Source of the DNA: Vezdaea acicularis
Taxonomy: Eukaryota
Reading direction: 5' to 3'
Length of the DNA: 34,923 nucleotides
NCBI GenBank assembly: GCA_026025075.1
Contig: JAPEUI010000152.1
Span: 1-34,923, forward strand
This document shows, one piece after another, positions 5,311 through 30,678 of this stretch (the first letter of the stretch is position 1; each line of letters starts with the position of its first letter). The translations under genes and the position numbers were made by a program. The notes under the pieces are model-generated. The model was not told the origin of the DNA, ran no database searches, and saw only the letters and a list, made by a program, of their open reading frames with translations.

Positions 5311-5422
5311 CTCCTCGCTCAGACAGTTCTCCTCGCCCAGACAGTTCTCCTCGCCCAGACAGTTCTCCTCGTCCAGACAGTTCTCCTCGTCCAGACAGTT
5401 CTTGTCATCGAGACAATTCTCC
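5311..5422. repeat. 18 bp minisatellite (cagacagttctcctcgYc), about 5-6 copies, degenerating to the right
   Basis: Directly visible. The minus strand reads as a 6-codon repeat, (D/G)EENCL. Confidence 0.85.
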
Positions 5423-6735
5423 TAGTCAAGAAAGCTGTTAGTTACTATTACAGTTGTCGTCATCAACACAGTCGTTGTTTGAACAGTTGTTATTTTGCTC
5501 AAGCAGTTATCGTGAGGCATATGTTACATTTAGTAGTCTATATGTAACGCATACCTAAACCAATCTTTCATCATCCCTTCAGATCATAGCATCTATATCC
5601 TCATATGCTTGGACAATTGTTATCTAGTCAAAACTGACGATTGGTTGATCAAGCAACTTGCTTAATGAGCAGTTTTGTGGTGCCAGTAGCAAATTCTGTG
5701 GTGCAAATTCACACTTGAAAAGCTTGTTGGATCTCCTATCGAACGCCTCTCTGGGTCAGTATACTTTCTAGATAAGCTGCACCTGCTTTCACCTGATGAG
5801 CTGCAATTTTGTGGTATTCATCATGAAAGTTTAGTAATTTAATTGCCAGTCTAATGAAGTATTTTCGATTGGTGATTGGTGATCGTTCTTCTAAGTCGTT
5901 ACCATGATAGTGGTGATTGCGTACTGTCTCTATGATGTTATCGACATGAGATCTTCATGTCATTGGTCTTTTCTCTGATTTAGACTTCTTAGTTTCTATG
6001 CGATCTCTTTACTGGCCAAGAGGAGTGGGTCAGCGGTGATATCTGCAGCCGCCAGCTCTCCTGCATTCTCAATTCTAATTCTCCCAAACCGGTCTCCCAA
6101 GTTGTCCTCCTTGAGCGAGCTGGGGGTTTTTTTGGATGGGATGATTCATCCGCTGGTTCTTCATTTTAGTTGCTGTTGATCCAGTCATTAGAGCTTGATA
6201 GTCCTTTACAACCCCTAAAAACAGAGTGGTGATAGCGGACTGTCTTGCGTCTTTTCAATCCCGTCTCCTGCTAAGTTGGATCTATCCTTTGCGTAATAGC
6301 GTTCCAAGTGACGCTCGACTATCAACATAGAAGTAGGGAGTAATAGGTGTAATTCATCGCAACCACAATACGCAGACTTTGGCCAGATCCGCGTTAAGTT
6401 TAATGGTACGGGATGGAAAGCGTAATAAGCAGATAATGAGAAAATTGCATTAGGCGCAAAGATAAGTTGAGATTTGACGTCAACCTAAATGAAAGTTTCT
6501 GATGTGGGGAGGTCGGGCAAAAAATTGTACTATCAAAAACAAGAAGCGACAAAAATTTGAGGCTTCTGATCGTTCATCTCATCACCGCTTTCTTCACCAT
6601 CACTTACCTCACTTCTCTCTGCAGCTCTCGGTTAATGTTGGGAATAGTGGTGCTACTATTGGCGGATTCTTGATCTTCTTGAGATATTTGGTGCTCATTC
6701 AGCTCTTAGGTGCTCAAATTACGCATCTCAACAAG

Positions 6736-9224
6736 ATGCCTGACGGCGATGGGTCCAGGGCAATTCTTGCAAATTGTGATTCGGATTTCACGCCACTTCG
6801 AGACATGAATCACGAATGTCAATTCTCGAGTACGATGAGTTACTCAGAGCTAATTAGTTGGATCACCACTTCTTTCTCTTTAAAGGAGTTAGAGCATCAA
6901 GTTTCACGCATAACCGTTGATCAAATAAACGCATATGGAGAGAAAGAGTCGATTATCGTGGAAGATGATGAAGATTGGGCCAACGCGATTGATCCGCAAT
7001 TTTCAAAAACAGCTAGCTTAATCCGTGTTCAATTTCGTGTAGAGCCAGCTACTCAAGATATTGGCAGGCGACATTGTACACCTCTCGATGATGCTCTACA
7101 ACAGAGAGATTCAACCAGCAAAGTAACATTGCCTGGCTCATTTCCTTTGTTATCTCAGGCAGCGGGAGATCCACAAAAAGTGTTTCAAAGAAGAACAAAA
7201 GAGGAACAGACCCAAATGCTCCAATATGTGGTTTACTTAGCTGAAAGAAATCCAGGGATCACCAATCAAAGCAATTCTGGGGACAAGCGCGGGGAGACGG
7301 ATCTCACCTATCAAATGTGCATGAAGTTTCTCGATAACAAGAAGCTTCAGCGCTTGCGCGATCGCACTGCAGCTGTGGAAGCAATCACCCGTAGGCTCAA
7401 CTTATACGGCACTTCTAACATCAAGCAAACCATAGTCTACCGTCTTCCTCCACAGCGCCATCGCCCCAATGGAGAGGTGGTGTTCGGAAATGAACACAAA
7501 GCTCATCAGCAGACGTTTCTTGCTTGGGCGCTCTGGATGGAAGAGAGCATTCAGTGCGGAATTTGTGCAGACTATATGGGACTGGGCAAAACGCACGAAT
7601 GGCTTTCTCTCATCGTGGCTGGTACCGATTTCTGGGAGCAACGAGCTACAGGGGGTGCTACACTGGTGGTTGTGCCAAATAACCAAGGTAAAGAAGCCTA
7701 TGATATTGCTCAAAATCAACTTGGAGAAGGGTTCAACGTTATGCGATATGGTATAGGTGGAGGAGTAAGCCATTCGAGATGCGTCAAAAAGATCATGTTG
7801 ACGCCTAAAGATGAGCATTTTGCGGATCCGATCAAACGACGCCGACCTCCCGTCAAAGTGGTACTGAGCATTCTGGACGGAATGAAGAGCAAGGAGAGAG
7901 AAGCTACGCTCAACGGCCTGTCATAGCTACTAATCTATCAAAGAAGCAAGAACGTGATGCCTCAGGAACTGAAGGCTCAGTGCAGGAGTTGAATCATTCA
8001 GATTGTCCTCAACGATTGCAGGCTAGCAGACTATCCGACGTTCCGGAAACCATGATTTCATCTCTAGCCAATCCAATAGAAAATGAGCAAAAGGAAGTCA
8101 GTTCAGCATCTAATGCAATTCGCGTATCTAAAATCGTGGAAACCTGCCCTCGAGTTTTTAGCTCGGCGTTAACCATCAACCGAAAGCCACTTCCTCAAAC
8201 TACTCAGGTCATCACAAAACTGCCATTCTCAGTAGATTCTACTTCCGCCCGTGTCTTCATTGAGAAAGATGCTAAGAAAGAATTCAATGATTCTACAAAT
8301 ACCTCTGCATCATCTACAGCACCCATGCCGTCACAACACGACAATCACACACCGAGCGCAATTCCCAAGTTCAAGCTGAAGATACGGCCGGAGCAGACCA
8401 GATCCGCTCCCGCAGCCCCTGAGCTCTGGCCATGAAACTACAATGAAAACTATCCATGGATAGAAGCATCGTCCGAGCTTGACGTTCGGCTGTCTGAACC
8501 AAAGCCATTCCCGGTCAAAACTAGCCGTCCTCCATGATTCAAGCTCAAAATCAAGCGACCTTTGGCTTTGACGCAGAGTACTGATTTAATTGGCCAAGAA
8601 AAGACTCCCCCCAAGCGTGGCACTCATCTATCATCTTCCTCGCGGGCACCGAGTTCTGTCTCGCCTTCGCAGGCAGAGGATGTTTTTATTTCCCCAACCA
8701 AAGTTGCTGCACAGTCAAAGTTCCTAGAGAGTCTACGGCAGAGGTTGGGCCTCTCCAATAGTCCACGAGAGTTCCAGGAGAGCCTTGTACAGAAGAATTG
8801 GGGCAGCAGCGAGCCGGCGCTCCAGACCATTAGGGCCATGATGCGGAGCGATCTAGCTGAGCTGCCTGTTCGTACCTCGACGGGCCAGCCACCCAGTTTC
8901 TTTTCAGATGAGAGTTCCCAGGTTGAGCCACGGTTAAGTTTCCGGAAGCGACTTTCGCAGTTCAGGCCTCGCCTGCCACCTGCTCGCGCGCGGAAGTCCT
9001 GGATTCCGATGGAAGATATCCGCCCGGTCAGGGAAGAAAATGTGGCTAGCCTTGCCACAAGGCCAACTACTTCTGAAACGGAGCCCAAACGTTTACCTCG
9101 AAAGGAGAGGACAGAATTCCAACATCCTTCCACCGGCTTTCTAGCGAAATTGCGAAGGTGGTTGGCAAAGGGCAAGGAGAAGATTCGAGGATGGAAAGCG
9201 AGTATGAGTCGGAGGGGGGCCTAG
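6736..9224 (+). pseudogene. Disrupted long gene with a truncated SNF2-like ATPase N-terminal fragment and a low-complexity Pro/Ser/Arg tail
   Basis: GICADYMGLGKT resembles SNF2 motif I and ATLVVVP resembles motif Ia; no DExH or later motifs. ORFs 7980-8435 and 8562-9224 share one frame, broken by TGA at 8433 and 8535, and that frame stays open back across the 7926 stop (apparent frameshift). Start at 6736 is a guess. Confidence 0.6.
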
Positions 9225-10585: not shown

Positions 10586-11445
10586 CTACTTCTTCCCGCT
10601 CACCCATCCCTCCACGCCTCCCCTTGCGCCTTCAACGCCCTGCTCAATCTTCTTCTTGCCCAGCTCCGCGTGAACCTTGCCGAACCGCCATGCCTCTTGC
10701 AAGAAGCCTCGGGTATACAAATGCGCATTCCTGACGGCTGGCACCTTTTCCTCATAAGTCCAGACTAGATCTCCAACATTGCGACTGGTGATTGGGAGCA
10801 CTATCCACCCGACGGTGATCCCAGCGGCGAGGGGCACGGAGAAGCGAAGGAGGATGTTGCGATTCCGTGTGAGGATGCTGCCAGCCATTGCTGACACTAG
10901 GACGTAGATTGACCCCGGTAAGACTTTCTCGGAAGAGCCCTTGGACGGTGCAAGAGATGCGATGGTGCTTGTGAAGGAGTTTTCGAGGTGAAACCCTTGC
11001 GTGAGAAGATTGTTGAGCTTGTCCTCGCCTGTAGAGACGGCTCTCTGAAGAGACAGTCGGGCCGCCCGAACATGTTTTTCTAGGCGGTCTGTCGGAGTCG
11101 GGTTTGAGACGGATTGAGAGGAGCTTGGATGGGCGGCTTTGGAGGTCGGCTTTGGATCTGCTTTCACGGCTGAATCGGCGGCGGCTTTCAGAGCGGCTTT
11201 CGAAGCGGCCGAGGGAAGCATTCCCACGTCATCATATATCGGCTTCTTCAAGTACTTTGGAGAGGAATCAGGTGCCTCGGCGTATGCGGTTCTGGAGGAA
11301 AAGAGAGCAATGCCGGCGGCCAGTGCAGTGGCTGCGACTGGGACCACTGAGCGCTGCACATGTGTTAGCCCTTCGCTGTGGATAGTCGCCGGCTGTTCAT
11401 CAGGAGGCGACGGTGGTGTCAAGGAAAGATCTTACCTGCCGCAGC
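10586..11445 (-). CDS. MIC26: MICOS subunit Mic26/Mic27 (apolipoprotein O family), apparently lacking its start codon region
   Basis: Motifs KKPIYDD, TPTDRL..VRAARL, LENSFTSTIASLAP, LPGSIYVLVSAMAGSILTRNRNILLR and NVGDLVWTYE. Intron from a GTAAGA donor at 11435 to GCTAAC..TGCAG near 11354. The upstream exon frame (..ALRQ) meets a TGA within six codons with no ATG. Confidence 0.85.
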
Positions 11446-14189: not shown

Positions 14190-16000
14190 AATGGGGCTGG
14201 CTGCCTCTCCTCCTCCTTGACTCCACCATTTCATTCTCATCTCGTCCTTTGCACATTGTAGCTTCCTGTTCCGTTTGGTGGTGCTGCTTTGGCATAAGTA
14301 ATAATCCTTCCAGTCCCCTTCGCAGCACCCGCCTTCTCAAATCATCCTGGTCATTGCGCATATCCTCTTGGAGAGCTCCCCCTAAAGCTGAGGTGTGTCT
14401 AAACAAAATGTCCAGCAATCCTAATTGTGGCACCTGTTGGAGGGCACTGCCCACATGATCCATTGCCTCCCTATGAAGGGTAAAGCGACCGTGTAACTTA
14501 GCTAGATAACTTCCATCACATCAGTCAAATTCGGTGTGATCATCACTCCCGCTCCATTCCAACAGCACCCAAGATGAAGGTTTTGGGGTTCGACGTATAT
14601 GTCGCAGTGAGAATGAATGAGTTGCTATCTACGTTGAGACGGGGGGAAGGGGAAGCTTATAAGATTCCCCTGAGTACGGGCCAATCCTACATGGGTATGG
14701 CAGGGGTGAACCACTCGAAACACTCCCTACTAATACAAGAATATACCCTAGTGCCACCTCGTCGACACACTCTCGCTGACAGCAAAGGAAAATGGGCATA
14801 TCGCTTTGGGTGGATATGATTGAAAGTCAGAATTGTTAAGGGTGAATGTATAGAGGATATAAGGATTTGGGGGGGATCTCAAGGGACAGTGTTGGTAGGG
14901 AGTGCCTCACGTGGGTTCACCCCTGCCTTACCCATGTAGGATTAGCGCGTACTCTCAGGGGAAGCTTATAAGCTTCCCCTTCCCCCCGTCACAACGTAGA
15001 TAGCAATTCATACATTCTCACAGCGGCATATTGGTCGAACCCCAAAACCTTTTATATTGTGATAAGCATGAGTCATCAGACCAGAACCGTGTCGAAGGAT
15101 GCCGTTAGAAGTCGCTCAAGAGTAGGAAGAGAGGGCGCTATATAGACTACCAAACCCCCTCAGCCAGAAGAGTAAGCAATTCACAAAATTCTTATACCCT
15201 TCTAGTACCTGTGTGTTTTTTCCACGCTAAACTGTCGTGATGGCAAGAGGAAGAGTGCGCTTGTCCGGCGACTGGACACCCAAAAACAAACTGACGAAAC
15301 ATGGAAGCAACGCCTTTGTGATCAACAAGCCGAGTCAAATTTACTAAATGCTCATGACTGGTTCTGCAGCTTCGCACAAATTTAAATAGATCCTGCATCT
15401 TCGTGCCATATCTAGAGCCCAGCAATCGAAGCGAATACGCTTGGACGCGGCTGACAAACAAGACAAATGGTTTTGTCTCGGGCATCTATCACAACGCTCT
15501 TAAGCTTTGTGGCTCACGTTTGATGTCCATTGGGCTGACTTGCCATTCTTTCCCCAAAGCAAAGTCAGATCCCTCTGTCCCTGAGCTGGCAGCTTTCCCA
15601 GGCCGCCCAAAGTTTGGTGCTCCAAACAATGGCCTCTTTTTCTCTGTGTCAACTTTAGACCAAGTAAGTAAGATAGAGACATGTGTAAGCAAAAACAATC
15701 GACGCTGTATAGGTATGATGATACATCACAAAGACGATTCTGTTGAAGTACTTGCCAGTGGTCGCTCAAAAAGAGTGTGATATCGACCATTTATTCAGAG
15801 CATGACGGTTCGTTTACGGCGTTACGCTACCAAATGTCTGGGAACGGATCTAAAGCCTTCGTCCGTCAAATCTTAGTGTGCACTGATAATAGCGATAAAG
15901 CATTATTTGTGCCTTACAGAGAGCTCAGGTTAATCAAAACAAGAGTAAGTTCTGGAAGAGACATCTTGAAACCTTTTGTGCGCTTACTCATTGTCAAATG
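14190..16000 (+). pseudogene. Relic of a fungal hypothetical-protein gene with stops and frameshifts, interrupted by the MITE
   Basis: Coding-like fragments on both sides of the MITE. CVSKNNRRCIGMMIHHKDDSVEVL is followed by an out-of-frame QW (cttgccagtgg), and ORFs 15403-15780 and 15777-16220 abut in different frames. Boundaries are approximate. Confidence 0.4.
14577..15051. mobile_element. MITE-like non-autonomous element (~475 bp) with ~160 bp imperfect terminal inverted repeats
   Basis: Left arm aaggttttggggttcgac...caggggtgaacc...cactccctactaatac (~14577-14738) is the reverse complement of gtgttggtagggagtg...ggttcacccctg...gtcgaaccccaaaacctt (~14889-15051). No transposase; target-site duplication not clear. 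Confidence 0.88.
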
Positions 16001-16307
16001 TAGAGTATCATCTGGTGGTTTTCTGAGCATTACGACCATCTTGAAGTGTATAAAGAGGCATTGTAAGATACAACCTCCAGGCGAGCTTACTCTTGAGGCG
16101 TTCATGTTACATTACAGTAGCTTGGTGTATGGTAATAGGCTTTCCCTTTGGATTACGTGTTTTGCAGGGATTGCTGCGATCTATATTATCTCTAGAGTTG
16201 AACTTCCAAATTCCAAGTAGCCTAAAGAAACCAAACCAATAGCGCCCCATTCTTGCAGAATCCACTATCGTGTTCAGCAAGCACACCGTTTGTTCAATCC
16301 AGTGTCC

Positions 16308-19300
16308 CTAGATGGCATGAGTTTTGGGCATTGATAACAGATATTCAAACAAATCCCCCGAATCTAGTAATCGTGGTTCCCTTTTACGTTGGAGACTGGC
16401 GAGGTGTTCTAACTTAGAAATCGTACTCTCGTCAACTTGCATGGATGTTCCATAATTTAGCAAACTAAGGATCGGGTTATCGACAAGGCATTTCAGTTTG
16501 GGGCGTAAATTCTCAACCATCTCCACAAAGAAGTTGAGCTGATCATTGTCTTGAGAGATCTTATTATACCTAGAAACAGTTAACGGTGGGGAAAATTGTT
16601 TACGTTTAGATATCAGCTCACATTTCGGGATGCACCGTGAAATTACAATCAAAGGGACTTGAAACCTTTCGGGTAGGAATCAGCGCAGCCACTGGTAGGT
16701 CACAGCATCCTTGTAACCTTTGAAGAGCGTTGCCTTCGTTTACTATACTCTTTATTTTTCGTCTCATCTTGTCTGATTCCGCATCCTTCTCCAGTTCTTC
16801 AATCGGCTTCTCATAGCTCTCGGCAATAAGTTGATCATATACGTAGGCGCCAGCGCTTTTACCTGGATAAATGACTCCAGTTGCTTGACCACTCCTGCCC
16901 TCTCTAAGTCTCTTAAGCTTCTTGTCCTTTAATTTCTGCTGTTGAATTTGCTTCAACTCAGAGAACCGCTTGCTCAGGTAATGAGCAGCCACGCGTTTTT
17001 GAATCTGATAGCAAGCCATGCCGACTCGGGCACCAACATGCAGGGCAAGAGCTCTTGCTGAACAATTAAGTGGTGTTTTGAATTGGGTGACGCCTTGAGA
17101 TTTTAGCATAGTGACTACGTCGACAAGTGTCTGGGGACCGCCAAAAGCAGACACCAGCATGAGAATGGTATATATTGTGCCTGATTGCATCTTCCCGGAT
17201 TTAGACTGCTTGTTGTACGCTTCCAACCACTTTAAGCCAGCGACTTGTAAGATTCCCGTATGTGTAGCATTTGTTGGGCGACATGCAGTAGGGATGTCAT
17301 CAAAATCGGTAAGCTTACGCACCTTTGTCAAGTTCTCTACACCAACACCACCGGAAGCCAGGTCCCTTTTTCGTTTAGCGGAGATAATACGAACTTTGTC
17401 TGTTACATGCTGAATGAGCATTTTGAGATAGTGCAGTCGGAGCTCAACGGGACTTTTGCTCAAGATGTTGCTATTATGTTTTAACAATGCTTCAGCGTGA
17501 GCAATCACATAAATAGCACAGTTAACGCCGTCTTGATGTCCAGGGAAAAGCTGCGATCGTTCTTTAGACCAGTTGATAGATGTTGATAAACTCTTATTTA
17601 CTGATTTTCCGATAAAGTCAGCCACCTCAAAAGATCTGGTTGATTGATCGATGAGATCAATCTTAGCCGAGAGAATGTTGATGACAATAAGATACCAATG
17701 GCAGCCGCCAATAAAGTATGGTGCAATCACCACGGTTGCCTCTGCTGGAATCACAAGCTCGGATATATCGTGACTTTCGAAAGCTTTAGAAAGACTCAAA
17801 GGATCTATGACGAACTTTGTTTCGTGGTCCACACACATGAGTCGAAGGAGAAAGTATACTACACGATCACTCAACCAATTGTCTGGCGGCGAAAGATCAG
17901 GGTCAAATCTGCGAAGTTCAGAGGAGCAGTTTTCTAAACTTTCCATGGATGTGGGCCACATGAAATGCTCATGATGTTCTGAAGCAAATTCGATGCACTG
18001 CTTGATTTCATCACATGCTGAAGCGTTAGAGCCAGGGTTTCTGTCCTTTTTTTGGTCCTCTTTTTCGATTTCTCTTTCGCTGTTGCTATTGACCAGGCTT
18101 CCATTTTCACTTGTGTTTTTGCTCCAGCTCTCACTCTGGTTGTTGCCATTGCTCGGGCTTTCATTGCTGCTGCTGCTCTTGCTCTTACTCTTGCTGTAGC
18201 TAATAGCCAGGCTTGGACTTTTGCTCCGACTCCTGCTCCTGCTCGCAATTTCATCCTCGTCCTCGTCCTCGCCCTTGCCCTCGTGCGTGCTATCGCTCTG
18301 AATTTCGCTATTGCTGTTAACTGGGCTTCCATTTCTACTGCTGCTACCGCTCCTGCTGCTCCTGCTGCTGCTCTTGCTGCTGCTCCTGCTCTTACTGTAG
18401 CTAGTGGCTAGGCTTGGACTTTTGTTCCGACTCTTGCTCCTGCTCGCAATTTCGTCCTCGTCCTCGTCCTCGTCCTCGCCCTCGTCCTCGCCCTCGCCCT
18501 CGTGCGCGCTATCGCTCTGACTTCCGCTTCTGCTCTTGATCCTCATCTCGCTCTCAAGATTTACACCTTTGGGGTTTGAATACTTCTTTCGAATAGGATA
18601 TCTAGTAGTAGTTGATGATGGCCGTGTGGTCCTCCGTGGTTTAGATTGTGTTGTAGGCTTGTCGTCATTCTCCAAATCCACTACATCAAGTGGACGACTA
18701 AAGTTTATCTTCATTCCTCGTGAAGTCATAAACTTGCGTCCACTACCACAACCGGCGCGACTAGAACAATCCCTATGGGTTGGAGGACAGAACCATTTTG
18801 GATTGATACAACAGTTACACGCCTCCGCAATGTTTTTACCAAAGTTAAGACCACAATGATATGCGCCGTACAGGATAAGCATTAAGGTTTTAGGCTCCTG
18901 GAGAGCCACGGAGAAATCAATCTCCCATTCACGCAAAAGGGAGGGACGTATGATTATGGGATAATGGCGCACAAATTGACTGCAGGCCGCTGGAATATTT
19001 AGATGGTGTTTTAGTCGAGACTCCAGCTTCTCTTTATGATGTGGATAAACAATTAGCCAGAGCTTTGGACAGCCCTCAATGACGACATTTATTGAATCTA
19101 AGCCAAAATCCTCCGAGTGTAAAGGGAATACTGTTTCATCGTCGCTGGAAACATAAGCATAAGACGAGTGAATGCCGAGATAGTGTTGCTGAGTGCTGAG
19201 GAGACGATCGTCAGGTTGAAGAATAGAAACAGCAGAAAGGCCTAAATCGCTGCGTTGTTCCTCAATGTGAGCGCTAGCAATATAATATCGTGAAGGCTTG

Positions 19301-19872
19301 TTCGATGATGACTTAGCTATTGCATCGATTTCTTGCTCCATGATTCTTTCAAGATCAGATGTGTCATATGTCCTTGTATCTGGAGGAAATTCGGGCATAT
19401 AAAAACACTCATTGTTACCCAGCTCTATAGTCGACTCCTTAAGCTCAAGTATACCATTCTGATGACGGAGTTTCTGCTCTTGTACTTCACCTCGACGGAT
19501 TTCACCAAGGGTGTGAGACAAAGGTGGTAGATTTGGAAGCTTCACGACAAGGAAGCCTGCTATTGATTTATGTCGATTGACCTTCTCCAAGCCTCGTAAC
19601 TGTTGTACAAGATTTGAGGTGTCTTGTAAAAAAAGTGTTTCACATTCTTCGCGGGATCCAACAGTTAGAGCTGGAGATTGAGAGCTTGCAGCGCTTCCAA
19701 GGCCGGTATCCAAGCGCTGCCTTATTGACTGAGCTGCTTCTGGATGGTTCTTGAGATATTGTAGGAGGGGGCCTAATATCTGAATTGAGGCTTAGTAAAA
19801 GTCTTGCTGTGCTCAAGGTATCGTACTTACACTATCTAGTGTGGCGTTCTGTGATCTGGTGGACCTTGCCAT
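16308..19872 (-). CDS. JmjC (KDM4/Rph1-like) demethylase domain + Ser/Arg/acidic linker + Ulp1-like (C48) protease domain + helical C-terminus, about 1,150 aa
   Basis: Exons 19872-19831, 19779-16622 and 16569-16308 with in-frame introns 19830-19780 and 16621-16570. JmjC: FPLHSEDFGLDSIN (HxE), PKLWLIV, CSQFVRH, GAYHCGLNFGKNIAEACN. C48: WLSDRVV, GCHWYLIVIN, IDLID, HQDGVNCAIYV (H, D, Q, C). Confidence 0.88.
18160..18540 (-). repeat. Internal duplication and low-complexity linker within the JmjC-Ulp1 gene
   Basis: QSDSAHEGEGEDEGEDEDEDEDEIASRSKSRNKSPSLATSYSKS and QSDSTHEGKGEDEDEDEIASRSRSRSKSPSLAISYSKS, built from ctcgtc and ctgctc micro-repeats. Confidence 0.85.
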
Positions 19873-19930
19873 GATTCGTTCGCGTTGCGTCGTGGGCGTC
19901 GTGTACGTTGTGTGCGAATCTATGGTTGGG

Positions 19931-20000
19931 GTGTTATATCACGTGAGTCGCGGCTCCGTACATCGGATTGTACGGAGCCGCGACTCACGTGATATAACAC
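19931..20000. repeat. Perfect hairpin, 32 bp stem and 6 nt loop
   Basis: gtgttatatcacgtgagtcgcggctccgtaca - tcggat - tgtacggagccgcgactcacgtgatataacac, about 60 bp upstream of the JmjC-Ulp1 ATG; each arm contains CACGTG. Confidence 0.97.
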
Positions 20001-22255
20001 TCTAAGTGTGACCAACCACCATACAGTGCGTGGCATACGAGAAGCACTACATAGAGGCGTCACCTTTGAATGCGGCACCATGCTGTCACTGAATCGTTGC
20101 AAATTCAATCAATGCTATTGTGGGCTTACATTGGGGAGAATTTATGTAATACTATGTTTTGGATTTAGATGCATTGTCGGTAGAACTTTGTCATCTCAAC
20201 CCTTTTGCTCAGGGGCCTGCCTGGGTAGGTAGGTGCTGCTCTAATAAACTGCCCTCTCAAAGAATCGAGCGTCCTAATAGCTAATTGGCACAGACAAATA
20301 TCTTTCCTGTATAGACGAGAATTGACATCTCACATCTGTCGCTCTCGCTGTTGTGGGTAGCCCCTCAACTGCCAATGCAAGTCGGTGTCAATCCAACGGA
20401 AATCCGACTTATCAGGCTCACCCCCAGAAATTGCCTCGTCCCTAGTGTCCGTTTCTTTGCAATGGAAAGGTCGCTCTGTCGTGATATCTGTGACCGTCCG
20501 GTGTACTTACGACTGATCTCGCTGGCAAGTTACATCGGGCCAGTCATTTGTACACGTACAGCGAGGTTGTTTGCGGCAGTCAAAAATTCGAGAGAAGCCA
20601 TCACATTGGATTGCCTAAGCTGCAAGTATTGTACTGATCAGCGATTTGTCGAATACAACCAGTGGCTCGTCAAGTTTGCAGGGAAGAGTGACCGAGTGAT
20701 CCTGTCTCCGCTGGGTGTCAGACAGGAGACTGAAGGCATCCCAAGCTGTCCTCCATGCAACATCGCGATTTGGCTTTTCCTCGGTATACCTCGCTGTCTC
20801 AGCCACGATCACTCTTTCCTCCTTTGTTATGGTACTCGTGCTATCGCCTGTGACCGGTCCCTACATGCCTTGCAAAGCAGACAGAGTCCTCTTTATTCCA
20901 TTCACGTAACAGTCTTTCATTTTAAGATGTCATAGATCGGCGTTGATGACCTTGCGCTAACATTGGACAGGATTCCGAGCTTTTGGAGTAGTTCTCTTTA
21001 GGTCAGCTTTCCACTGGCGTAATGTTATCTGTTGGGCCTACGCGGCCATCAATGAAGAAATAGCCTGCCCCCTTTTGACACTTAGCTTGGAGTTACCTCG
21101 GCGCACTTTCGACAAGTATGAGGCTAGAGCTATATCCTCGTATGGTAGGCACTTAATCGATATACCATTGCCAAAAGCTCGATCGTCGCAATTAACCTAT
21201 ATGGGAAACGCCATTAGGTGCCCCTTCTCTGGCCGCACAGATTCTTGCTACTAACGCTGGAAGTAGCTCTACGGTCGGAGGGAAAGAAATTCTCACACTC
21301 TAAATCGCCATGTCCATTAGACAGTTGCGATCTTTCTTCTGGGTATTCCAAATCAAGGTCTTGCCATTATGGATTTGCTGTTTAGATCTGTTTCAAAGTT
21401 GACGACGGCTTGACCAGTCAGTCCACCCTGCTTGGGAAATGAGACGTGACGAGTCGGCGTATTCCTTATTTAGATCTCTCATGATGTTGATAATCTTAGG
21501 GGATCTTTAAGAATGGCTCACTGGCTGTGTCTGTGTCATCTCAAAAACATGTGGCAATGAATGTTATCCTCTGCTAGTTGGCTGGATAGACCAAAGTTAA
21601 CGTAGATCGTGTCAAAGATCACTTACTTGGTCCACTTTGACTGCCATGAGCTTACAACCGGTACATAATTATTAGTAGCGTGAATAGAGTCTGGCCTCAA
21701 GTCGTCTGTTGTGAGGGCCAACCTGCTGCGACGGCCCAACCTGCTGTGAGGAGTGTACTGTACAGTACAGTGAGTAAGTGCTGCTTGAATAGGAATATTC
21801 TGTAGAAAGGCGACCAAACAAAGTCCGGCGATAAGTGAAGTGAAGATCAATGGGGTGAATATGAGTGAGGTGAAGTGAAGGTGGGAGTAATACGTACATA
21901 AAGTTTAGCAAGAGTGGTTTCTTGGGAGACGGATTGTTTCTCACTTGATTGCATCTGCGCCTCTTGTATCAATATCGCCCCTGATCTGCGCCCCAACAGG
22001 GATAGACGACGGCGCATGAACATACCAAACCAAAAACACTGGTTGTTTTGGATTCAGACATCGAGTCCTGGCTTGGAGAGTTCCCGTTGAACTCCAGTCC
22101 TTAGATTCTTACAATTAGGCCCAATCTATCCCTCCAACAAGAGGATCTGCTCATCGGGAGCTTACGCAGTCGATGAACGCCCATATAAGTCAATGCCGAT
22201 CGAATCCGATCAACGTCCTCAACGCTGCCGCCGACATCAGTACCCGCAAGATTGT

Positions 22256-22820
22256 TCATCCGTGCATTACGAAGACGTTAACTGTTTGTGCTGCTGGTAT
22301 CCTTCGGTTGCTACAACTTGAAGAGGGAGATGCGCAATTGCCAAAGACAGAGTTTGGGCCAAAGCATTTCTTTTCCAACTCTTTCATAAGGAGGTACTTT
22401 TCTTCAAACCTTTCCACCAGTTTTCTCCGCACCTCATCCTTCAACCTAATTGAACGTTCCTTGTCTTCCCCAAGGAGCACAATTACAGTTTCAATCACTT
22501 CGCGCTTGTCATATCTTGCATCTCCTGTTGTTGCATCACCAATAGACCACACGTTGGATAGTTTCACCGCTGCGGGAAAAGCATGGGCTGGTCGACCATA
22601 TGCGCTGGCACTTCGTCCGCTTGGCGACTTCAGATAGGCCACCATTCTCCGATGACAATCCGCCAGCTCGCTCCGTTTCTCGCTCTCTTTGTTGTCAAGT
22701 TCTTCGTGATCCTCCTGAATGCCCAGTGAACCAAGGGAAAACCAAGCGCCGTCGTTGTTCAGACATCTCAGTAGAGCCGTGCGCAACCTCCGGCCTGGTG
22801 ATACGAATTCCTCCTCTTGA
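22256..22820 (-). pseudogene. Truncated, frameshifted paralog of the C-terminal part of the 23429-25870 dioxygenase
   Basis: RGGIRITRPEVAHGS..RRLVFPWFTG, one extra G, then IQEDHEELDNKESE..KSPSGRSASAYGRP..AAVKL..WSIGDA. This matches RGGIRITRPDIAHGS..RRTIFPWFTGIRDDHQTLDNEESE..KSPSGRSADAYGRP in the intact gene. Confidence 0.9.
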
Positions 22821-22926
22821 GTCCATAAATCTCTGCAACTTCTTGGTCATTAGCACCATTTCGATTACGAAGTACGTAGTAGAGATGAGAAAGAATCAGC
22901 AGCCCAAGATGCAGCATCACTGTCCG

Positions 22927-22974
22927 GCTTAGTCAGCAGTTGACCACACTAGCGTGGTCAACTGCTGACTAAGC
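22927..22974. repeat. Perfect hairpin, 21 bp stem and 6 nt loop
   Basis: gcttagtcagcagttgaccac - actagc - gtggtcaactgctgactaagc. Confidence 0.96.
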
Positions 22975-23351
22975 TAGGGTCATGTTGTAACTATAGGACA
23001 GCTGGAGGTCGCATAACTCCTTCCTTCTAGCAACGGTGTTTTGAATGCTTTGAATCAAGAAGGGGAGAATATTTTTGATAAGCTACTGATTCGTGAGGGT
23101 CCACTCGTTGGTGTTTATGTATGGCAAGGTCACCTGACTTGGCTCGGTGATCGCATGGCGTTCTCACTTCTTACTTGATAAATATTCAGCCAGTGGTATT
23201 TGCCCTCTCATCCATCAACACAAACACAACATCATACTCAACCTCTTTGCCCCTGACTCTCTTTACAAGACCTTCATCTTTCATCCTTACGATCTATTCC
23301 ATCACCTCCTTCAGTAGATACCGTGTTGTCAGATTCGGAGCGAAGCCTTAC

Positions 23352-23415
23352 GCAGCATCCCTGCACTGCAGCATCCCTGCACTGCAGCATCCCTGCACTG
23401 CAGCATCCCTGCACT
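23352..23415. repeat. Four perfect tandem copies of the 16-mer gcagcatccctgcact
   Basis: Directly visible; ends 13 bp before the ATG at 23429. Confidence 0.96.
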
Positions 23416-23428
23416 AATTGTCGGTCCA

Positions 23429-25870
23429 ATGGCGCACGTTATTTTTCCGAGCCACACGGCCACAGGCAAAGCTCCTTTCGACAGCGGAAGCCCGAGTGAT
23501 GAGCCGCAAGAACTATCTGAGAGCCAGCTGCAAGGGCTACCTCTGAGCAAGCAGCTCCAGCTACTGGTTGAACGCATCAAAACCGCCGCAGAAAAGCAAG
23601 AACCTTTGGTCGAGTCGGCAATCGAAGCCTGGGATTACATTATCAACCACCAGACATGGAGAGCAAACTACCCGACATTGGAAGCTCTGAAGGACGAGCT
23701 GAACCGCAGCGCAGGCCTCGATTGCATAATCAAGACACATGAGTCGATCGTGTCTCGCAAGCAACTTGAAATTACAGGAATCGAGAAAGAATGGAAGTGT
23801 TCTCCAGACCAGGCGTTGCCGTCACATATGAAACCTGAACAGTATTCACATATATTACTCAGAGGTTTGAATCAGCTCAGCAGAGTTCTTCCCAAGGAGG
23901 AAGCTATACGCCAGTTGACCATCGCAATCACAACCCGTCAAAGCAAAATCCGAACTAGAAAATCTCCTTTTTTATCATATCCAGACATCAAAGCAGTGTT
24001 GGACCAAATTCAGTCAAAGAAAAATGCTTGCGAAGTTGCCAAGGCCAACGATACGAATCTTGGGGATGTGGCAGGCTCGGAGGTCGTTGCCGAAGAGGAC
24101 ACTTCCATGACTGGGTCAGATTTGGAGACGATCACGGGTGCATCCACTCACAATGAGGAAGAGAAAGGTGGTGACAACGAGGAAGATGATGACAGAGATG
24201 AAGAAAATGAAGGCGACAATGACGATGATGATGACGATAATGTTGACAATGACAAAGATGAAGACATGATGGAAGCTGGAGAGGACCAAGAAGACCAAGA
24301 CATGACGGAAGCTGGAGATAGCCTCATTAGCAATGATAAGGGGCAGAATCAGAATATTCAGCCCTGTTTGGCAAAACTCATGTCCAAGAGGAAGAAGATA
24401 TCATGTCGCTGCCCAAAGGCGTTGATCAAAGAGATGGAATGCACTCGTGCTGGCAGGCTAGAGGACAAGCCAAGTAGCGGGATTAAGCTGCTCAAAAATG
24501 GCAGGAAGTATGGCCTCGGGAAGCTGTGCCACAATCATCTGAGAGTATTGGCCGGCAAGGCCATGATGCTGAAGACAAGTCGTCCGTCGACGGCCCTCAT
24601 TGAGCGACTGGAAACCTTGTGGCAGAACCACGGACAGCTGGACCAACAGAGAGTAGATAATGCGGAATGGTTCACAGGGATGCCGCCTGCCAAAATGTAC
24701 AAATTCATCCCTCTTCCAGCTCCAGCTTTCGATTTCAACTCTGCTATCATATTCGACTGCTTTGCAGGAGACGGCATGTGGTCAAGGTGGATCGACCAGG
24801 GGACTATCAACATTCCAAAGTTCTTTAGTTATCTGGTGGATTCTCCGACAATCTTCTCCAAGGTTGAGCAAGAGTTTGACATGTACCAGCATCACTACTC
24901 TGCACCGGAGAACACAAGGGGCTGGCTGAGGATTATGTACTACTCCTTGACCCAGCAAGTCATTCGACAGGATCCAGCGTACTACGCCGTCACCGTTGCC
25001 AGCCGACCGGACAAGAATTGGCGTCTGATCAGTTACCCGTACTACACCAAGGACACCACAAACCTAGGTAAGAGCACCGAGTTTCGCCACTTTGACATGA
25101 ATGTTCGCAAGTTCTTGAGCACTGGCAAGGGAGGGAACATTATCCAGGGCTGTGTGGCCCTGGATGATGAGACAGACAATGACTGCACTATGCTGATTCC
25201 TGAATTCCACAAGCATATTGCTGAATGGTGGGGAGAAGTGACGAGGAGAAAACAAGCTATCGGAGAACAGCTCCCAAATGGGGAAACCACGAACATTCCA
25301 TCAGAAATGTACACCCCAGAAGACAAGAAGAGGTTTGGTGCGTTTGTTCCCTGCCCCAGTCAGCGAGGTGGGATCCGCATTACCAGGCCGGACATTGCAC
25401 ATGGCTCCAGCAAGAAGGCTGGGCAGCGGCGGCGGACAATTTTTCCTTGGTTCACTGGCATTCGGGACGATCACCAAACGCTTGACAACGAAGAGAGCGA
25501 GACCTGGGACCAGCTGGCTGCTTATCACAGGGCTCTGTTAGCCTGTTACAAGTCACCGAGTGGGAGAAGTGCCGATGCTTACGGCCGGCCAGATGCGCCC
25601 TTTGCCGCGGGAGTGAAGCTATTCAGCACATGGGCCATCGGTGATGCATTGATTGGAGCAAGAAGATGGGATGATCCTATGGTTGTGCGAGACCGAAATC
25701 GGCTCTTGGGACCGGACTCCGAATCCAGAATTGCTTTGGTACAAGAGGTGCGGCAAAGGCTGCTGGACAACTTTTTAGAGGCGTTTCTCATTCTGGAAGA
25801 GGCTGAAAAGACTTCCTTTGGCTCAGACTCCTTCTTCCTGAAGCATGCCTCTGTAGTTTCGTGCTCCTGA
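23429..25870 (+). CDS. 813 aa intronless protein: helical N-terminus, acidic tract, Cys/His cluster and C-terminal PhyH-like 2OG-Fe(II) dioxygenase domain
   Basis: FRHFDMN (HxD), IQGCVALDDETDNDCTMLIPEFHK (PhyH-type strand), RGGIRITRPDIAHGS (distal His) and RRTIFPW (2OG-binding Arg); SCRCP...LCHNHLR upstream. Confidence 0.8.
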   Translation: MAHVIFPSHTATGKAPFDSGSPSDEPQELSESQLQGLPLSKQLQLLVERIKTAAEKQEPLVESAIEAWDYIINHQTWRANYPTLEALKDELNRSAGLDCIIKTHESIVSRKQLEITGIEKEWKCSPDQALPSHMKPEQYSHILLRGLNQLSRVLPKEEAIRQLTIAITTRQSKIRTRKSPFLSYPDIKAVLDQIQSKKNACEVAKANDTNLGDVAGSEVVAEEDTSMTGSDLETITGASTHNEEEKGGDNEEDDDRDEENEGDNDDDDDDNVDNDKDEDMMEAGEDQEDQDMTEAGDSLISNDKGQNQNIQPCLAKLMSKRKKISCRCPKALIKEMECTRAGRLEDKPSSGIKLLKNGRKYGLGKLCHNHLRVLAGKAMMLKTSRPSTALIERLETLWQNHGQLDQQRVDNAEWFTGMPPAKMYKFIPLPAPAFDFNSAIIFDCFAGDGMWSRWIDQGTINIPKFFSYLVDSPTIFSKVEQEFDMYQHHYSAPENTRGWLRIMYYSLTQQVIRQDPAYYAVTVASRPDKNWRLISYPYYTKDTTNLGKSTEFRHFDMNVRKFLSTGKGGNIIQGCVALDDETDNDCTMLIPEFHKHIAEWWGEVTRRKQAIGEQLPNGETTNIPSEMYTPEDKKRFGAFVPCPSQRGGIRITRPDIAHGSSKKAGQRRRTIFPWFTGIRDDHQTLDNEESETWDQLAAYHRALLACYKSPSGRSADAYGRPDAPFAAGVKLFSTWAIGDALIGARRWDDPMVVRDRNRLLGPDSESRIALVQEVRQRLLDNFLEAFLILEEAEKTSFGSDSFFLKHASVVSCS

Positions 25871-26985
25871 GGAGACTTGCATTTATGGCAAAGTTCAGAC
25901 TGTTGGGAAAGCCCCATCCATCTACGATTACCACCAACCCGGGGATATCCCTCTGGGCGAGCATTGACTAGTATCGGGTAAGCTGAGAGGTTCAGTAGCT
26001 GGCAGGAAACTCATACTCTCCGTGGTGATAGGGTCAAAAGCCCTCCTATCAAGGATAACTGTGAGAAGCCGCTGAAACCGTTCATACATGGGATGGCAAA
26101 AGGTTGGTTTTGCAAGACCTTGATCTGGCTGGCCTACTGAGCTTCGGCTTAGAATGCTCTGTGGGGTTCTTTGCTTTGATTCAGCCATTTTTCTGACAAA
26201 CGCCATGGGCCTTTCCAGGTCGCGGTCCACGCTGTGAGCCAAATAGTTGAAACACCAAGAAATTAGCGAGGTATCTTACCAGCAAGCTTAGGGGTGAGGG
26301 TACCTCGCTGCGAGAGAGGTGTGCCAACTTTTCTGCTCATCGCATGCGGTCGATATTGATTTTGAGCGCAACCGCTACTAAAGTCGACGATTGCCGTTAC
26401 TACCCGACCTTGTATATATATAATCACTTCCCTGTGACTCCAAAGAGCCTCTCTATGGCTTAAAACCTCGAGCCTTCAGCTAGAATTGACTACTAGGTAA
26501 GCGCCCTCACACACTCTGCTCACTGTATGAGCGGTTTGAATGATCACCATCCCTTCGTACGCCCATAGAGAGCTGTACTCAACCTCAGCTTTTATCTCTG
26601 GTTCCTGCCATCAACTTCATCATTACGTCTAGGCCAAAATCATCTTTCCATTTCACGCCTAACCGAGAACTGGTTATCAGTCTCGGCTCCCCACAGGGGA
26701 AACAAATGTCTCTATATATATATAATGTGAGTGTATGGAGCACCTGCTGCCTCTATCTTCCATAGTCTTAGCCTGCTTCTATCATCACAAGTGCTACTCC
26801 AATATCAGGCTCGCTGACGAATATTAGTCAGCAGAAACGTCCCTTCTACACCCTTTTCCCACAAAAGTCACCTCTTGGCTTCTCAAGGTAGACAAGCCTT
26901 CAAGGTCTCTATCTTTGACTACGTCGTGTATATACATTAACGAACCATAGATCCTAGGACGTCTTTTCTCCTTGATAAAGCCGTC

Positions 26986-27900
26986 ATGTCCGGCCAACAA
27001 GGACGCGGCAACCACCCTCGATCAACCTCACCTCGCCGAGATGGGCCGTCAAACTATCGCGAAAGGGACTCCGGATACAGTGGCTCTTCTACTCGTGGAA
27101 AATTTTGGGATGATCGTGGAGGCCATGGCGGACATGACGTCCGGAGCCGTGGTGGACGCGGAGCTTTCCAAGGTGGGCGAGTTGTGCATAGCCGTGTCTC
27201 GACCGGATCTAGCCTCCCAGACTTGCCTGCCAAAGTCGACGTACCTGCATCCGGCAGAAACCTTCCTGAGATGGGTTTGAAGATAGTGAGGGAGGTTGGC
27301 ACTACAACAAAGATCATAGTGAATCACTACGAGCTTCAAAGTCTTCCAACAAACAAAAATCTACCAGTACCAAGTATGGTCTATAAACTAATTGGCCATG
27401 ACAGTTACTAAATAAAGGTGTTAGATCCGAATGCGCGTTCCTGAGTCATCCCAAAGAAAAGGTAGCGAAAAGATGTCTGCCGCTCAAGAAGACAAGGCTT
27501 ATCGTCCATGCAAGCTTCCAAGGGACTGTAGGACTAGCATTCGTTGATGATGGTAAGTACATTGCCGAGCTGGTATGCACGCGTCTTGACCATTAGTTTA
27601 GATGTATCCATGGGATACTCACCGCAATACCTTTCCAAGATTGACTTTTTTGGCCATACAACGGCACGCTCAAATCAAGTGGAGGTTACTATTCTCAACA
27701 CAGGCACTCTGAATATTGGTTTACTTGTCAACTATATGCAGAGCAGGAAAATGCCTCTCAACACGATGGGAAACAAAGCTCGAACCGTTACTGAAAATGG
27801 TTGAACGGAGTGTACCCCAGCGATCCCTCGTCCAGATTTGTAACTCGATCAAACGATGATGCCTATTTTTAATGAACTCTCGATGTGTACTTTCAACAGA
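26986..27900 (+). pseudogene. 5' fragment of a fungal Argonaute gene (RG/G-rich tail + N domain), frameshifted and truncated before PAZ/PIWI
   Basis: RGG-rich N-terminus, then GTTTKIIVNHYELQSLP with KIYQYQ in a shifted frame near 27355; intron ~27374-27424; AFVDDG|intron|VSMGYS; VEVTILNTGTLNIGLLVNY; DPSSRFVTRSN..AYF. TATA run near 26712. No PAZ, MID or PIWI sequence follows. Confidence 0.7.
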
Positions 27901-27960
27901 GATACCCGTTCTTTGACAATCTGCTTTTCAGACCGTACATCGTGGTAACAAATCATCCCT

Positions 27961-29321
27961 TTACACAGTACTACCTCTTGCCCTAACAGGCAGTTTATTA
28001 ACCTTATCATCAGTTATGCGACCTTGCTCAGTATCTGAGGGTGAATCTGCTGGCAGAGATGTGTCATCACTTTGACTATCAATTTCAGAAGTCGTTGAAC
28101 TTGGCGCAGTTTGGGCCTGGTGAGCAGCGCTAGATCCACTTGGTTGAGCACAAATGGAGAAGCTAAATGAACTTTAGTGCAGCACGCCTGACATGAGATA
28201 TGAATCCTACTTACACTCGCCAGAATCCATGTATCCTTGTATCTTTTATCTCTCTTCTTACGTGGCCAAGAAGAACCTCTACCTCATATCTGGACCATTT
28301 TAACCCTTCGATGAACGGCGCCAACGTGAAGCCTGAAAGTCCTTCTAGCAGATTGTGCAGGGCCATAGCTCCAATTATCTTCTCCTCATGATCTTTAGGC
28401 CAAGAATTGATTGGCCACTTGCGTTCTTCCCTTTTGATACTAGTAAATCCAGTCTCTGTGAGTGTCTCGATTAAGCCCTGCATCGAATAAAGGGGACGAG
28501 CTTTTTTTTGATATGCTTCCTTTCTGAGATCCGACCATTTCTTTAAATATGAGTCTTCTGGGATTGATGAATCATCACATTCAAGTTGAAGACTAACGTC
28601 CTGTATTTCTAACCATCCATCCGAATTGAGATGTTCTCTACACCATTGTAAGACTCCCAACCAATTTCGAAGGCTTCCAACAAGACCGCGAGTATGAATA
28701 TAATCCCATTTTGTCAAGGGATGCCATTGGCACGTCTCAACATCGTCGACAACAAAAAAGACACCTGAAGGGACCCTGAATTGTTTGATTAGTTGTAAGG
28801 AGTATCGATTCGGACGTGATTTTTCTACTAACAAAGTTGGTTGAATTGCGCTGAGATCAATTCCTGTTACTATCATACCTGGATTCATCTCCGCTATAAT
28901 TTTCATGTTAAACTTGAAATTTTACGTGCAATGGCCTTTGGATTTTTACCAAAATCCATCACCCATATTCCAGTCCCAGTCCCAGTACCAATATCAAGAA
29001 CATTCTGTGCTCCTGATTTAATGGGAGCCTGATATAATTTCCGCCGAATGTATTCAGAAATAGCTGATGTTGCCAATCAAGACGATCTTGCTCCGCCTGC
29101 AATGCATGGTGAGTGAGAATTTTCAACATCAAGTTCTCGTTATGTCTTGCCTCGTCATTAGGTAAAAGATAGCCCTTACTATACGCTTGATAGGTGCGCC
29201 CATACTTCTCAATACCCTCTCTTACTGATGAACTCACGGAAGTGGAACCTTGACTTTCTAGATCTACATTTATTCCTTCGTCTTCGTCGACAACATCTGG
29301 ATTTGGCTGAGTGGTAGCCAT
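27961..29321 (-). pseudogene. LaeA-like (Methyltransf_23-type) SAM-dependent methyltransferase with a 1 nt frameshift
   Basis: STSVSSSV..KYGRTYQAY..YLLPNDE|AEQDRLDWQH, VLDIGTGTGIW, GIDLSAIQP, VDDVE, WDYIHTR, DGWLEIQD and KWPINSWPKD. Four introns, the first GC-AG (29150-29097). ggaaattatat near 29035 lacks one A, so KLYQAP..VLDIGTGTG is out of frame. Confidence 0.88.
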
Positions 29322-30549
29322 TGATGATTCTTGCCAGAGCGAAGATGAATTTCAGAAGATGAGTGATTGGCTAGTCTTTCACTTGATGGATTTGGCGTTC
29401 ACGGCTGGGTATTTATAAGATGGCTTGGACACTAGGATATTGCAGTCATCAACGCATGAAACGTTCAAACAGCTCTGCCATGTTTAAAACTTTAAGATAT
29501 ATGGCTACAGTAAGTTTATACATCGGCTCTGTCTTGGTGTTGTGTTTCCGCTCTACAACCAAACCAGGCCAGGGATACCAAGACCCAAACACATGCGCAC
29601 CCCCTCCTGCGTAATCTAGACCCGGCTATAGATCCAAAGGCCAGAAATATTTGCCATATGTACTTGTATCTGTTGCATTGGTATCTGTCCCATTAGTACT
29701 CAGCAAGGAAGACTCTCCCGGACGGAGAGGCCTCTAAACAACGCTCCGTTACGCCCAAACCGCGACAGCCTCCGGATATGGAGTAGCAATATTCGCCTTG
29801 CCGAACTGGACCACCCCCTTTAATCGAAATGCGCGCATCAACTGTAGCCCCCCGCTCACTCAATTGCTTAGCTTTAAAGTTGCCATATTCAAAGAGTAGA
29901 AGTCTCCCAGGCCAAGATGCCGCTAAGATTCGAGGCTCAAAGCAGGCAGACTGATTGCCGGCTATGACCTCATATTTAGGCAGGCGATCAACATGAAAAA
30001 GCCTTCGGATTCCGAATTGGAGATTTTCACGATCCAGATCAGCCACACTGCGGCCGCATTCGTGAGACTATCACCAACAGATGAATCAGCAAAGAGGCCA
30101 GTTAATAGAACCAAGTCTTACAGTACTCGAAAACTACCAAGTTCTTCAGCTTCCCAAGCTGGGTCAGTTGGATTGAGATGAGTTTGGCTAGAACATGTTT
30201 TCGAGTGAGGCATAACCAATGTATGTCTTTGGTAAGGTTAGGCAACGTACAATGCAGATTTAGGCTAGAATTTGTTTGAGGTCCTCCAGCCTTGCGATTG
30301 GAGAATATATAGAGGCAGCATCATTGAATAGTGATGTATCAGCGGTCAACGGATGAACCTCCCGCAAATACGTCAACCATGCTTGATCCAGATTATTGAT
30401 CAACCTGGCGCCAATGTCTCAATATTGAAATTACAAAATGGCGCTAATCTTTGGACAGGACGGTTTCCGATCATTTTAGAGGGGCGCTAAATGATGTCGG
30501 GCCGAGGCGTGCGAGGCTGCCGCTGGAAATTAGCGAGTATGGCTTACGA

Positions 30550-30590
30550 CAGGGATTGTTCTACAAGGCTATCCTATAGAACAATCCCTG
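30550..30590. repeat. Hairpin, 14 bp perfect stem and 13 nt loop
   Basis: cagggattgttcta - caaggctatccta - tagaacaatccctg, about 90 bp upstream of ATG 30679. Confidence 0.85.
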
Positions 30591-30678
30591 CCATGCTTTT
30601 AGGGGGTTATTGAACATCTCTCCGCCTGGATCTCAAGAAGAAACCGTCCAGGCTACTTCAAATGTCATTTCTTACTCA

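Follow-up and report, generated by a model that had tools for sequence, protein, structure and literature searches.

A PhyH-like dioxygenase family found beside unrelated transposon classes, and a JmjC-Ulp1 gene beside one of its members in Vezdaea acicularis

TET/JBP dioxygenases are carried by fungal DNA transposons, have passed between unrelated transposon classes and are described as the sole group of enzymes to modify 5-methylcytosine actively (Kojima 2025, PMC12730594). The introduction of the same paper also names the VANDAL/VANC anti-silencing system. KDM4-like JmjC genes are described from giant viruses endogenised in Amoebidium, where they were proposed to counter H3K9me3 silencing (PMC11244446). 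This article addresses a stretch of 34,923 nucleotides from the fungus Vezdaea acicularis (hereafter the window), which is an entire contig of about 35 kb (JAPEUI010000152.1, here C60) in an assembly of 18.9 Mb and 315 contigs (GCA_026025075.1). As the first-pass annotation of this DNA had reported, it contains two large intact genes for 2-oxoglutarate/Fe(II) (2OG-Fe(II)) enzymes that point away from each other: a JmjC-Ulp1 gene (1153 amino acids (aa), minus strand) and a PhyH-like dioxygenase gene (813 aa, plus strand). Members of the PhyH-like family are passengers of transposons and lie beside unrelated classes of elements; the JmjC-Ulp1 gene probably comes from a different family, one that evolves fast and has a promoter of similar type.

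The PhyH-like gene (23429..25870, +; Pfam and alignment) begins with the ATG at 23429 of an open frame that covers 23318-25870. Its product consists of an N-terminal domain outside known families, an acidic linker, a CxC..CxxH motif and a catalytic domain in which H554-x-D556, H658 and R668 are intact; by the motifs of the superfamily, these are taken to be the HxD...H triad and the 2OG-binding arginine. Among 33 aligned members of the family, H554 is conserved in 33, D556 in 31, H658 in 32 and R668 in 31. The Pfam family PhyH matches the window protein with an E of 0.0024, which falls below its cut-off, and matches 27 of the 33 members at E<=1 (best 9e-9), whereas none of the 33 matches Tet_JBP at that threshold, which distinguishes these enzymes from the TET/JBP proteins. 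The nearest neighbours by protein language model are PhyH clusters (0.91-0.92, fewer than 170 shared features), and an atlas search with the N-terminal domain gave no usable match. Named homologs are spread over scattered Pezizomycotina (37 matches among 8000 scored candidates). The closest of the dioxygenase homologs, P0002, bears the source name gamma-tubulin, to which its sequence gives no support.

Relatives of this gene occur in 242 metagenome loci, and the neighbourhoods of the best 80 were analysed. These loci total 583 kb; 26 of them reach at least 8 kb, and at least 3.8 kb of flank is present upstream in 21 and on either side in 29. Of 146 neighbouring open reading frames (ORFs) that reach 190 aa or more, 103 non-redundant ones were annotated with Pfam. 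The most frequent of the neighbours combines OrsD (DUF3505), recombinase-like and RecQ parts in a single gene and is found in 12 of the 80 loci, about eight of them independent (L080:500-4921, L095:2213-5965, L062, L097 and eight more). In 10 loci it lies upstream of the dioxygenase gene on the same strand, and in L080 its stop codon falls within the arm of the hairpin. The middle domain of four of these proteins displays, by eye, an R-K-H-R-H-Y-type pattern (R..K..H/R..H..Y) that resembles the catalytic set of tyrosine recombinases. These genes possibly represent an undescribed or poorly described class of elements; a literature search for CryptonH together with a helicase gave no match.

Other transposon classes are found beside the same family. 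Helitron Rep/PIF1 genes occur in 3 of the 80 loci, one of which (L086) contains a tandem 9.7-kb unit with both the Helitron and the dioxygenase genes, and further neighbours include Plavaka and DDE_3 (L039), hAT (L092), patatin (L054) and pieces of retrotransposons (three loci). In a FastTree phylogeny of 87 domains, to which long-branch warnings apply, a clade with a support of 100 mixes members linked to RecQ, Helitron and hAT, and RecQ-linked members occur in other clades too. Loci L039 and L108 carry near-identical dioxygenase genes in different flanks, and the homology between these two, like that among L082, L086 and L087, begins 4-10 nt before the hairpin. Since the family lies beside several unrelated transposase classes, the class of the neighbour shifts across the tree and the conserved block keeps a palindrome at its 5' limit, we consider these genes as passengers; this link to several transposase classes is family-wide and does not come from the window locus itself. 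A recurring gene family of up to 1155 aa also lies beside the dioxygenase (L107:14980-18444, L104, L105, L069 and L064); it has no Pfam or NCBIfam match and may be another mobility gene.

Like the TET/JBP genes, which are reported across Plavaka, hAT and Helitron elements with a proposed escape from silencing (PMC12730594), these passengers are 2OG-Fe(II) dioxygenases, and they appear to parallel the TET/JBP-carrying transposons with a different dioxygenase. Unlike them, they have the OrsD/RecQ gene as main neighbour and a palindrome upstream, whereas, according to the same paper, the ends of TET/JBP genes show neither palindromes nor terminal structures; its text does not mention PhyH, JmjC, Ulp1 or hairpins. 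No description of the PhyH-like family was found in the literature searched, including passages of 10.1101/2025.11.13.688278 and PMC10104507; Iyer et al. 2014 (PNAS), Repbase or supplements may already cover both this family and that of the JmjC-Ulp1 gene.

Both window genes are preceded by a hairpin. Hairpin 1 (19926-20005) precedes the start codon of the JmjC gene by 53 nt and has 37-bp arms carrying TCACGTGA (z -13.5), and hairpin 2 (22927-22974), with outer arms TTAGTCAGC (z -7.3), precedes that of the PhyH-like gene by 454 nt. None of 200 shuffles folded as well in either case; the hairpins of the first-pass annotation are therefore real, whereas the perfection that it attributed to them is not, both being near-perfect. 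The long distance to the PhyH-like ATG may be explained by a 313-bp segment (22992..23304, +) shared at 85% with contig C108, which carries a DUF3435 captain and NOD-like receptor (NLR) genes. A 435-bp stretch (22570..23004), which takes in hairpin 2 together with a portion of a second, truncated PhyH-like gene, has a 99% copy on C143 (11306-11740), downstream of a Gypsy integrase ORF. This stretch looks captured by a Gypsy-type element, and its junction recurs as a loose end in the sequencing run X3 of a related strain.

The association extends to the whole family. Among 51 located N-terminal domains, 10 had less than 450 bp upstream and were excluded; with a criterion of at least 14 paired bases per arm and at most 700 bp upstream, a palindrome precedes 31 of the 41 scored genes versus 15 of 644 other windows of the same loci (Fisher p 3e-22); with the genes grouped at 75% DNA identity, it is found in 19 of 26 clusters. 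Other long ORFs of these loci scored in 6 of 57 cases, four of which are PhyH-like N-termini missed by the filter, and those of genome stretches in 2 of 59, one being the JmjC gene. The sequences of the palindromes vary: outer arms are TTAGTCA or TGAGTCA in 14 genes, which are spread over both halves of the phylogeny, GATTTCAAT or ATTTCAAT in 5, of TTACGTA/TTATGTCA types in 4 and TCACGTGA in 1. The arms of the family resemble AP-1, CRE and E-box sites, TTAGTCAGC being AP-1/Yap-like and TCACGTGA E-box-like. The PhyH-like gene of L054 is preceded by a hairpin of the E-box type that resembles that of the JmjC gene. In the V. acicularis genome, the paired AP-1-like pattern occurs at six places, of which the three long hairpins are the promoters of the two PhyH-like paralogs and the C143 copy; the paired E-box pattern occurs once in 18.9 Mb, at the JmjC gene.

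The simplest reading of the palindrome is a symmetric promoter, and it probably acts as a portable one. The hairpins could instead be recombination or processing sites; the hairpin-gene units would then be cassettes that the recombinase-like RecQ protein moves or that rolling-circle elements pick up. Homology that begins at the hairpin would fit this alternative, as would L044, in which the same 67-bp palindrome (16-86; 3136-3202) flanks the dioxygenase on both sides with 97% identity, and L074, in which a related pair (4770-4820 and 7541-7584) surrounds the gene. These second, downstream palindromes keep a cassette-boundary reading open. However, downstream copies are found in only 2 of the 80 loci, the distance is that of a promoter, the sequences differ between lineages save for short transcription-factor-like motifs and covariation lends no support, so that we regard such sites as very improbable. 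In L043, five related hairpins (604; 4974-5820), with arms ending in telomere-like repeats, surround a 905-aa ORF outside known families.

The second intact gene (16308..19872, -; three exons; spliced model P0038, supported by splice sites) encodes a KDM4-like JmjC domain, an acidic linker, an Ulp1-like protease and a C-terminal domain. Both enzymes thus have the acidic linker announced by the first-pass annotation, in each case acidic and of low complexity. The open frame 16618-19791 (-) matches Pfam JmjC with an E of 1e-17 and Peptidase_C48 with an E of 8e-4, slightly below the Pfam cut-off; the Ulp1/C48 catalytic set (His-Trp, Asp, oxyanion Gln and Cys) is complete in P0038. The JmjC ligands H235, E237, H322 and K253 and the zinc residues C280, H286 and C352 agree with the host KDM4 encoded on C146. 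The protein therefore has the Fe and 2OG ligands and the zinc site of the KDM4/Rph1 demethylases, and its closest solved structure is KDM4D (E 1e-18). It differs from them in its fusion to an Ulp1-like domain, in the replacement of the pocket lysine, in a JmjN domain for which Pfam gave no match and in its position in a clade apart from the C146 protein.

A full scan found 42 clusters of this JmjC family at E<=1e-30 and 744 at 1e-10. The Ulp1-like domain is present in 35 of 152 relatives and the C-terminal domain in 9, and Pfam annotation of 57 of the 152 found fusions to SET, Zn2Cys6 and kinase domains in more distant members. In a FastTree phylogeny of this family, 34 of the 35 Ulp1-bearing members lie on one side, apart from the host KDM4. 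Its long branches and domain shuffling would fit mobile or accessory DNA. The protein is likely to be a lysine demethylase or hydroxylase combined with a deSUMOylase. Its nearest precedent is provided by the Amoebidium viral genes, which are also divergent KDM4 paralogs without reader domains (PMC11244446); the fungal family differs in its Ulp1-like fusion and in its context, no relatives of it or of the PhyH-like family having been found on viral contigs. A literature search that combined JmjC and Ulp1 with fungal transposons and accessory DNA gave no match. One protein, P0044 (1604 aa), matches JmjC in 15 stretches, which may reflect either tandem repetition or an error of assembly.

The explanation that we favour, and to which we give about an even chance as a whole, is that the window is repeat-rich accessory-type DNA, with two intact passenger genes amid broken copies of host genes, and that the PhyH-like dioxygenase, with its own palindrome, weakens the silencing of the element that carries it. 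The two genes were likely acquired separately, as passengers of mobile DNA, and both are likely stranded, their carrier being no longer in view. The palindrome would be a symmetric promoter made of paired transcription-factor sites, and such a promoter would make the dioxygenase gene self-contained and able to work in any element. The enzyme might then oxidise a methylated base or a chromatin protein, by analogy with what has been proposed for TET/JBP on fungal transposons; that its substrate is nucleic acid or chromatin, to the benefit of the carrier, is conceivable, at somewhat less than even chances. VANC, an element-encoded protein that is not a dioxygenase, targets the element from which it comes by way of a short DNA motif that changes rapidly. 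The PhyH-like protein may similarly act on its own element, the binding of its N-terminal domain to the palindrome being putative. In its most extended form, which we hold as a rather improbable conjecture, this would make the family a second, non-TET epigenetic eraser common to several transposon classes, a portable palindrome-gene cassette whose PhyH-fold product oxidises a chromatin mark or a methylated base of DNA and whose variable N-terminal domain reads its own palindrome and thereby protects the carrier in cis, with KDM4-Ulp1 sharing the design and an undescribed recombinase-RecQ element as main carrier.

Several observations tell against this explanation. Characterised enzymes of the PhyH family act mostly on small molecules; a PDB profile search with the PhyH-like family gave only chance-level matches and no relevant relative, and phage records and PHROGs gave nothing informative on it. 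In the JmjC-Ulp1 protein, Tyr287 occupies the substrate-pocket position where the host KDM4 has a lysine (Lys in 13 of 149 relatives), so that histone trimethyl-lysine may not be its substrate. Pfam, NCBIfam and PDB did not back the assignment of the OrsD/RecQ middle domain to recombinases, and neither OrsD nor the recombinase-like domain was found in the genome of the window by the queries used, which had no positive control. The hairpin is missing in 10 of the 41 PhyH-like genes, one four-gene cluster owes its score to a tandem array whose loops are long, and one match is 624 bp off. With three sequences, covariation within the hairpins (1 pair) did not exceed that of shuffles (170 of 500) and, as palindromes can self-correct by template switching, selection on the folded structure is not supported. 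Within the window, no transposase, captain or element ends enclosing the two genes were found, and the presence of the region across runs of two studies means that it may be long fixed.

The first-pass annotation had united both enzymes with an Argonaute fragment, a LaeA-like methyltransferase and a SNF2-like relic in a candidate five-gene anti-silencing module whose parts would move together. These three further parts are indeed present. The 5' copy of an Argonaute gene (26419..27879, +), which Pfam alone did not detect, has 83% DNA identity, with gaps, to the 5' part of the complete gene of C242 over 26766-27879; it ends at 27879, before PAZ/PIWI, and the PAZ, MID and PIWI domains of an Argonaute are missing. 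The LaeA-like gene (28211..29321, -) matches Methyltransf_23 with an E of 3e-11, though it is frameshifted just before the S-adenosylmethionine-binding motif; as read cover is lacking there, this could be an assembly error. The SNF2 relic (6493..7926, +; Pfam E 1e-7, model positions 1-61 of 290) contains the motif I region only and ends 8.4 kb to the left of the JmjC gene, and later helicase motifs were not seen in three frames to 9300.

Other sequences lie between these parts. A Mic26/ApoO duplicate with an open frame (10586..11431, -), 69% identical to a second copy that sits among housekeeping-type ORFs on C157, lies on the stretch that separates the SNF2 relic from the JmjC gene. Between the JmjC-Ulp1 and PhyH-like genes lie two features that had gone unmentioned: a decayed 3' accessory ORF of a Gypsy long terminal repeat retrotransposon (20687..21718, -; tblastn 24-42%, with stops and frameshifts) and the second PhyH-like copy (22259..22846, -; about 70% DNA identity), which is 5'-truncated and frameshifted and retains the C-terminal part only. 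Homologs of the retrotransposon relic occur on six other contigs (C298, C212, C313, C112, C64 and C42) and come after pol or integrase on C313 and C112. The accessory ORF 3' of pol in this Gypsy family measures 580-820 aa and has no Pfam family over the cut-off. A gene common to the window and C42 (gene X), first taken as a member of the module, turned out to be a retrotransposon ORF.

Neither a JmjC homolog nor Argonaute, a LaeA-like gene or this SNF2 is found in any of the 80 PhyH-like loci, whether by tblastn with pieces of JmjC, Ulp1, the C-terminal domain, SNF2, LaeA and Argonaute or with a JmjC hidden Markov model and complete Argonaute queries. The comparison of neighbourhoods, made from the PhyH-like side, thus gave no co-occurrence with JmjC, and no fusion of JmjC and PhyH-like domains was met among 189 fetched proteins. 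As the flanks are short, this test of the module is of moderate power. The adjacency of two intact, hairpin-led enzymes, the E-box-type hairpin of L054, the Argonaute Ago1 reported as Starship cargo (PMC9156397) and the chromatin-type neighbours among the 80 loci (SNF2 in two, Ulp1-like in three, chromo in one) can be quoted for a co-inherited module. Against it stand the empty loci, the state of three of its five parts, Argonaute being a copy of a host gene, and the relic and Mic26 that interrupt it. Joint movement of the five genes is accordingly very unlikely, and the five-gene version is largely refuted. The idea of a chromatin-flavoured neighbourhood stands; that of a fixed module does not. 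Likewise, mobile or accessory cargo with chromatin-type features is upheld by the transposase-class neighbours and by a paralog on C42, whereas its co-inheritance is not.

This paralog brings Starships into consideration. A degraded Starship is defined, in PMC9156397, by at least three of DUF3723, FRE, patatin-like phospholipase (PLP) and NLR. C42 carries an intact dioxygenase gene (18184-20862; 40% identity to the window protein) with its own hairpin (20894-20946), accompanied by DUF3723, FRE and patatin-like genes (28166-38278), a combination that fits this definition. A cupin-like ORF of C42 (17289-17933), JmjC-like by eye, failed both tests and is not a JmjC gene. The window has an NLR, SesA-NACHT-WD40 (1-3211; Pfam), as its sole gene of this set, and neither DUF3723, FRE nor patatin was found in it. 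NLRs, duplicated host genes and Argonaute are types of Starship cargo (same source). The window genes might be mere cargo left by a degraded Starship or a comparable region, the PhyH-like enzyme hydroxylating a metabolite or serving a selfish toxin-antidote role without relation to silencing. The C42 region, the NLR, the 313 bp common to the captain-bearing C108 and the fact that PhyH is the best Pfam family would agree with this. However, a Starship-type gene is present in only one of the 80 loci (the patatin of L054), the mobile neighbours are mostly small elements with little other cargo, and the window, with one of the four conserved genes, has no DUF3435 captain; elsewhere in the genome captains were found only on C108 and C293. 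We consider this alternative unlikely. The main texts of two Starship papers contain no mention of JmjC or PhyH (PMC11162782) or of dioxygenase (PMC9156397).

As the first-pass annotation had remarked, no mobilising enzyme is visible in the window, either among the 29 ORFs, of 62 listed, that were scanned with Pfam or by tblastn of 795 neighbour ORFs; this holds for the KDZ/Plavaka transposases that it had envisaged besides a captain, neither being found within the whole 35-kb contig. Since the window is one whole contig, there is room for a captain past its ends.

Related strains were compared through contigs of three runs of one study (X1-X3) and one run of a second study, among 32 of 237 pieces. 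Among these, the three runs cover most of 11.5-28 kb at about 97% identity and the second study covers parts of the region. The pieces align without gaps in the PhyH region, where they diverge by 1.4-2.8%, and in the JmjC domain, where the divergence is 1.3-2.6%; it rises to about 6.5%, with gaps, in the retrotransposon relic and to 5.6-7.5% in the 3' part of the JmjC gene. This pattern fits selection on both catalytic regions. No sign of presence/absence variation was seen in the runs of the two studies, and no listed piece spans both genes. Cover is lacking at 28100-31400 in X1-X3 and at 14156-14819 in all four runs; as no contig joins across these stretches, the gaps are not read as absence. 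A loose end at 27879 agrees with the Argonaute paralog of C242. The lower divergence of the catalytic parts in a region that related strains share could indicate domesticated host genes, the transposon neighbours merely reflecting repeat-rich compartments; the carrier is indeed not in view, and many loci are short and lack a transposase. Nevertheless, the tandem units with both Helitron and dioxygenase genes, the RecQ gene directly upstream in 10 loci, with its stop codon within the L080 hairpin arm, and the near-identical genes of L039 and L108 in different flanks all speak against this, and domestication appears distinctly unlikely.

The window contains further repeats. These include a 475-bp inverted-repeat element that resembles a miniature inverted-repeat transposable element (14577-15051), a foldback-like element of 1.5 kb whose arms contain internal repeats (33234-34745) and a dispersed repeat of about 83 bp (26227..26310), often in inverted pairs on other contigs, which is likely to be the end of a DNA transposon. 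A third, weaker hairpin (18-bp arms; 30548-30592) lies by two ORFs without assignment within 30580-31697. Rfam gave no match over 16000-30000, and indices of repeat-induced point mutation revealed no clear trace of it in the JmjC-Ulp1 or PhyH-like gene.

As a second clade of dioxygenases that hops between transposons, the PhyH-like family makes a direct candidate for a new activity that modifies nucleic acid or chromatin in ascomycetes. The palindrome upstream of its genes provides an easily scored tag for the discovery of further passengers as well as a cis-element that can be tested, and both proteins of the window are intact and can be expressed and assayed. The JmjC-Ulp1 family, for its part, would constitute a fungal parallel to the KDM4-like genes of viruses.

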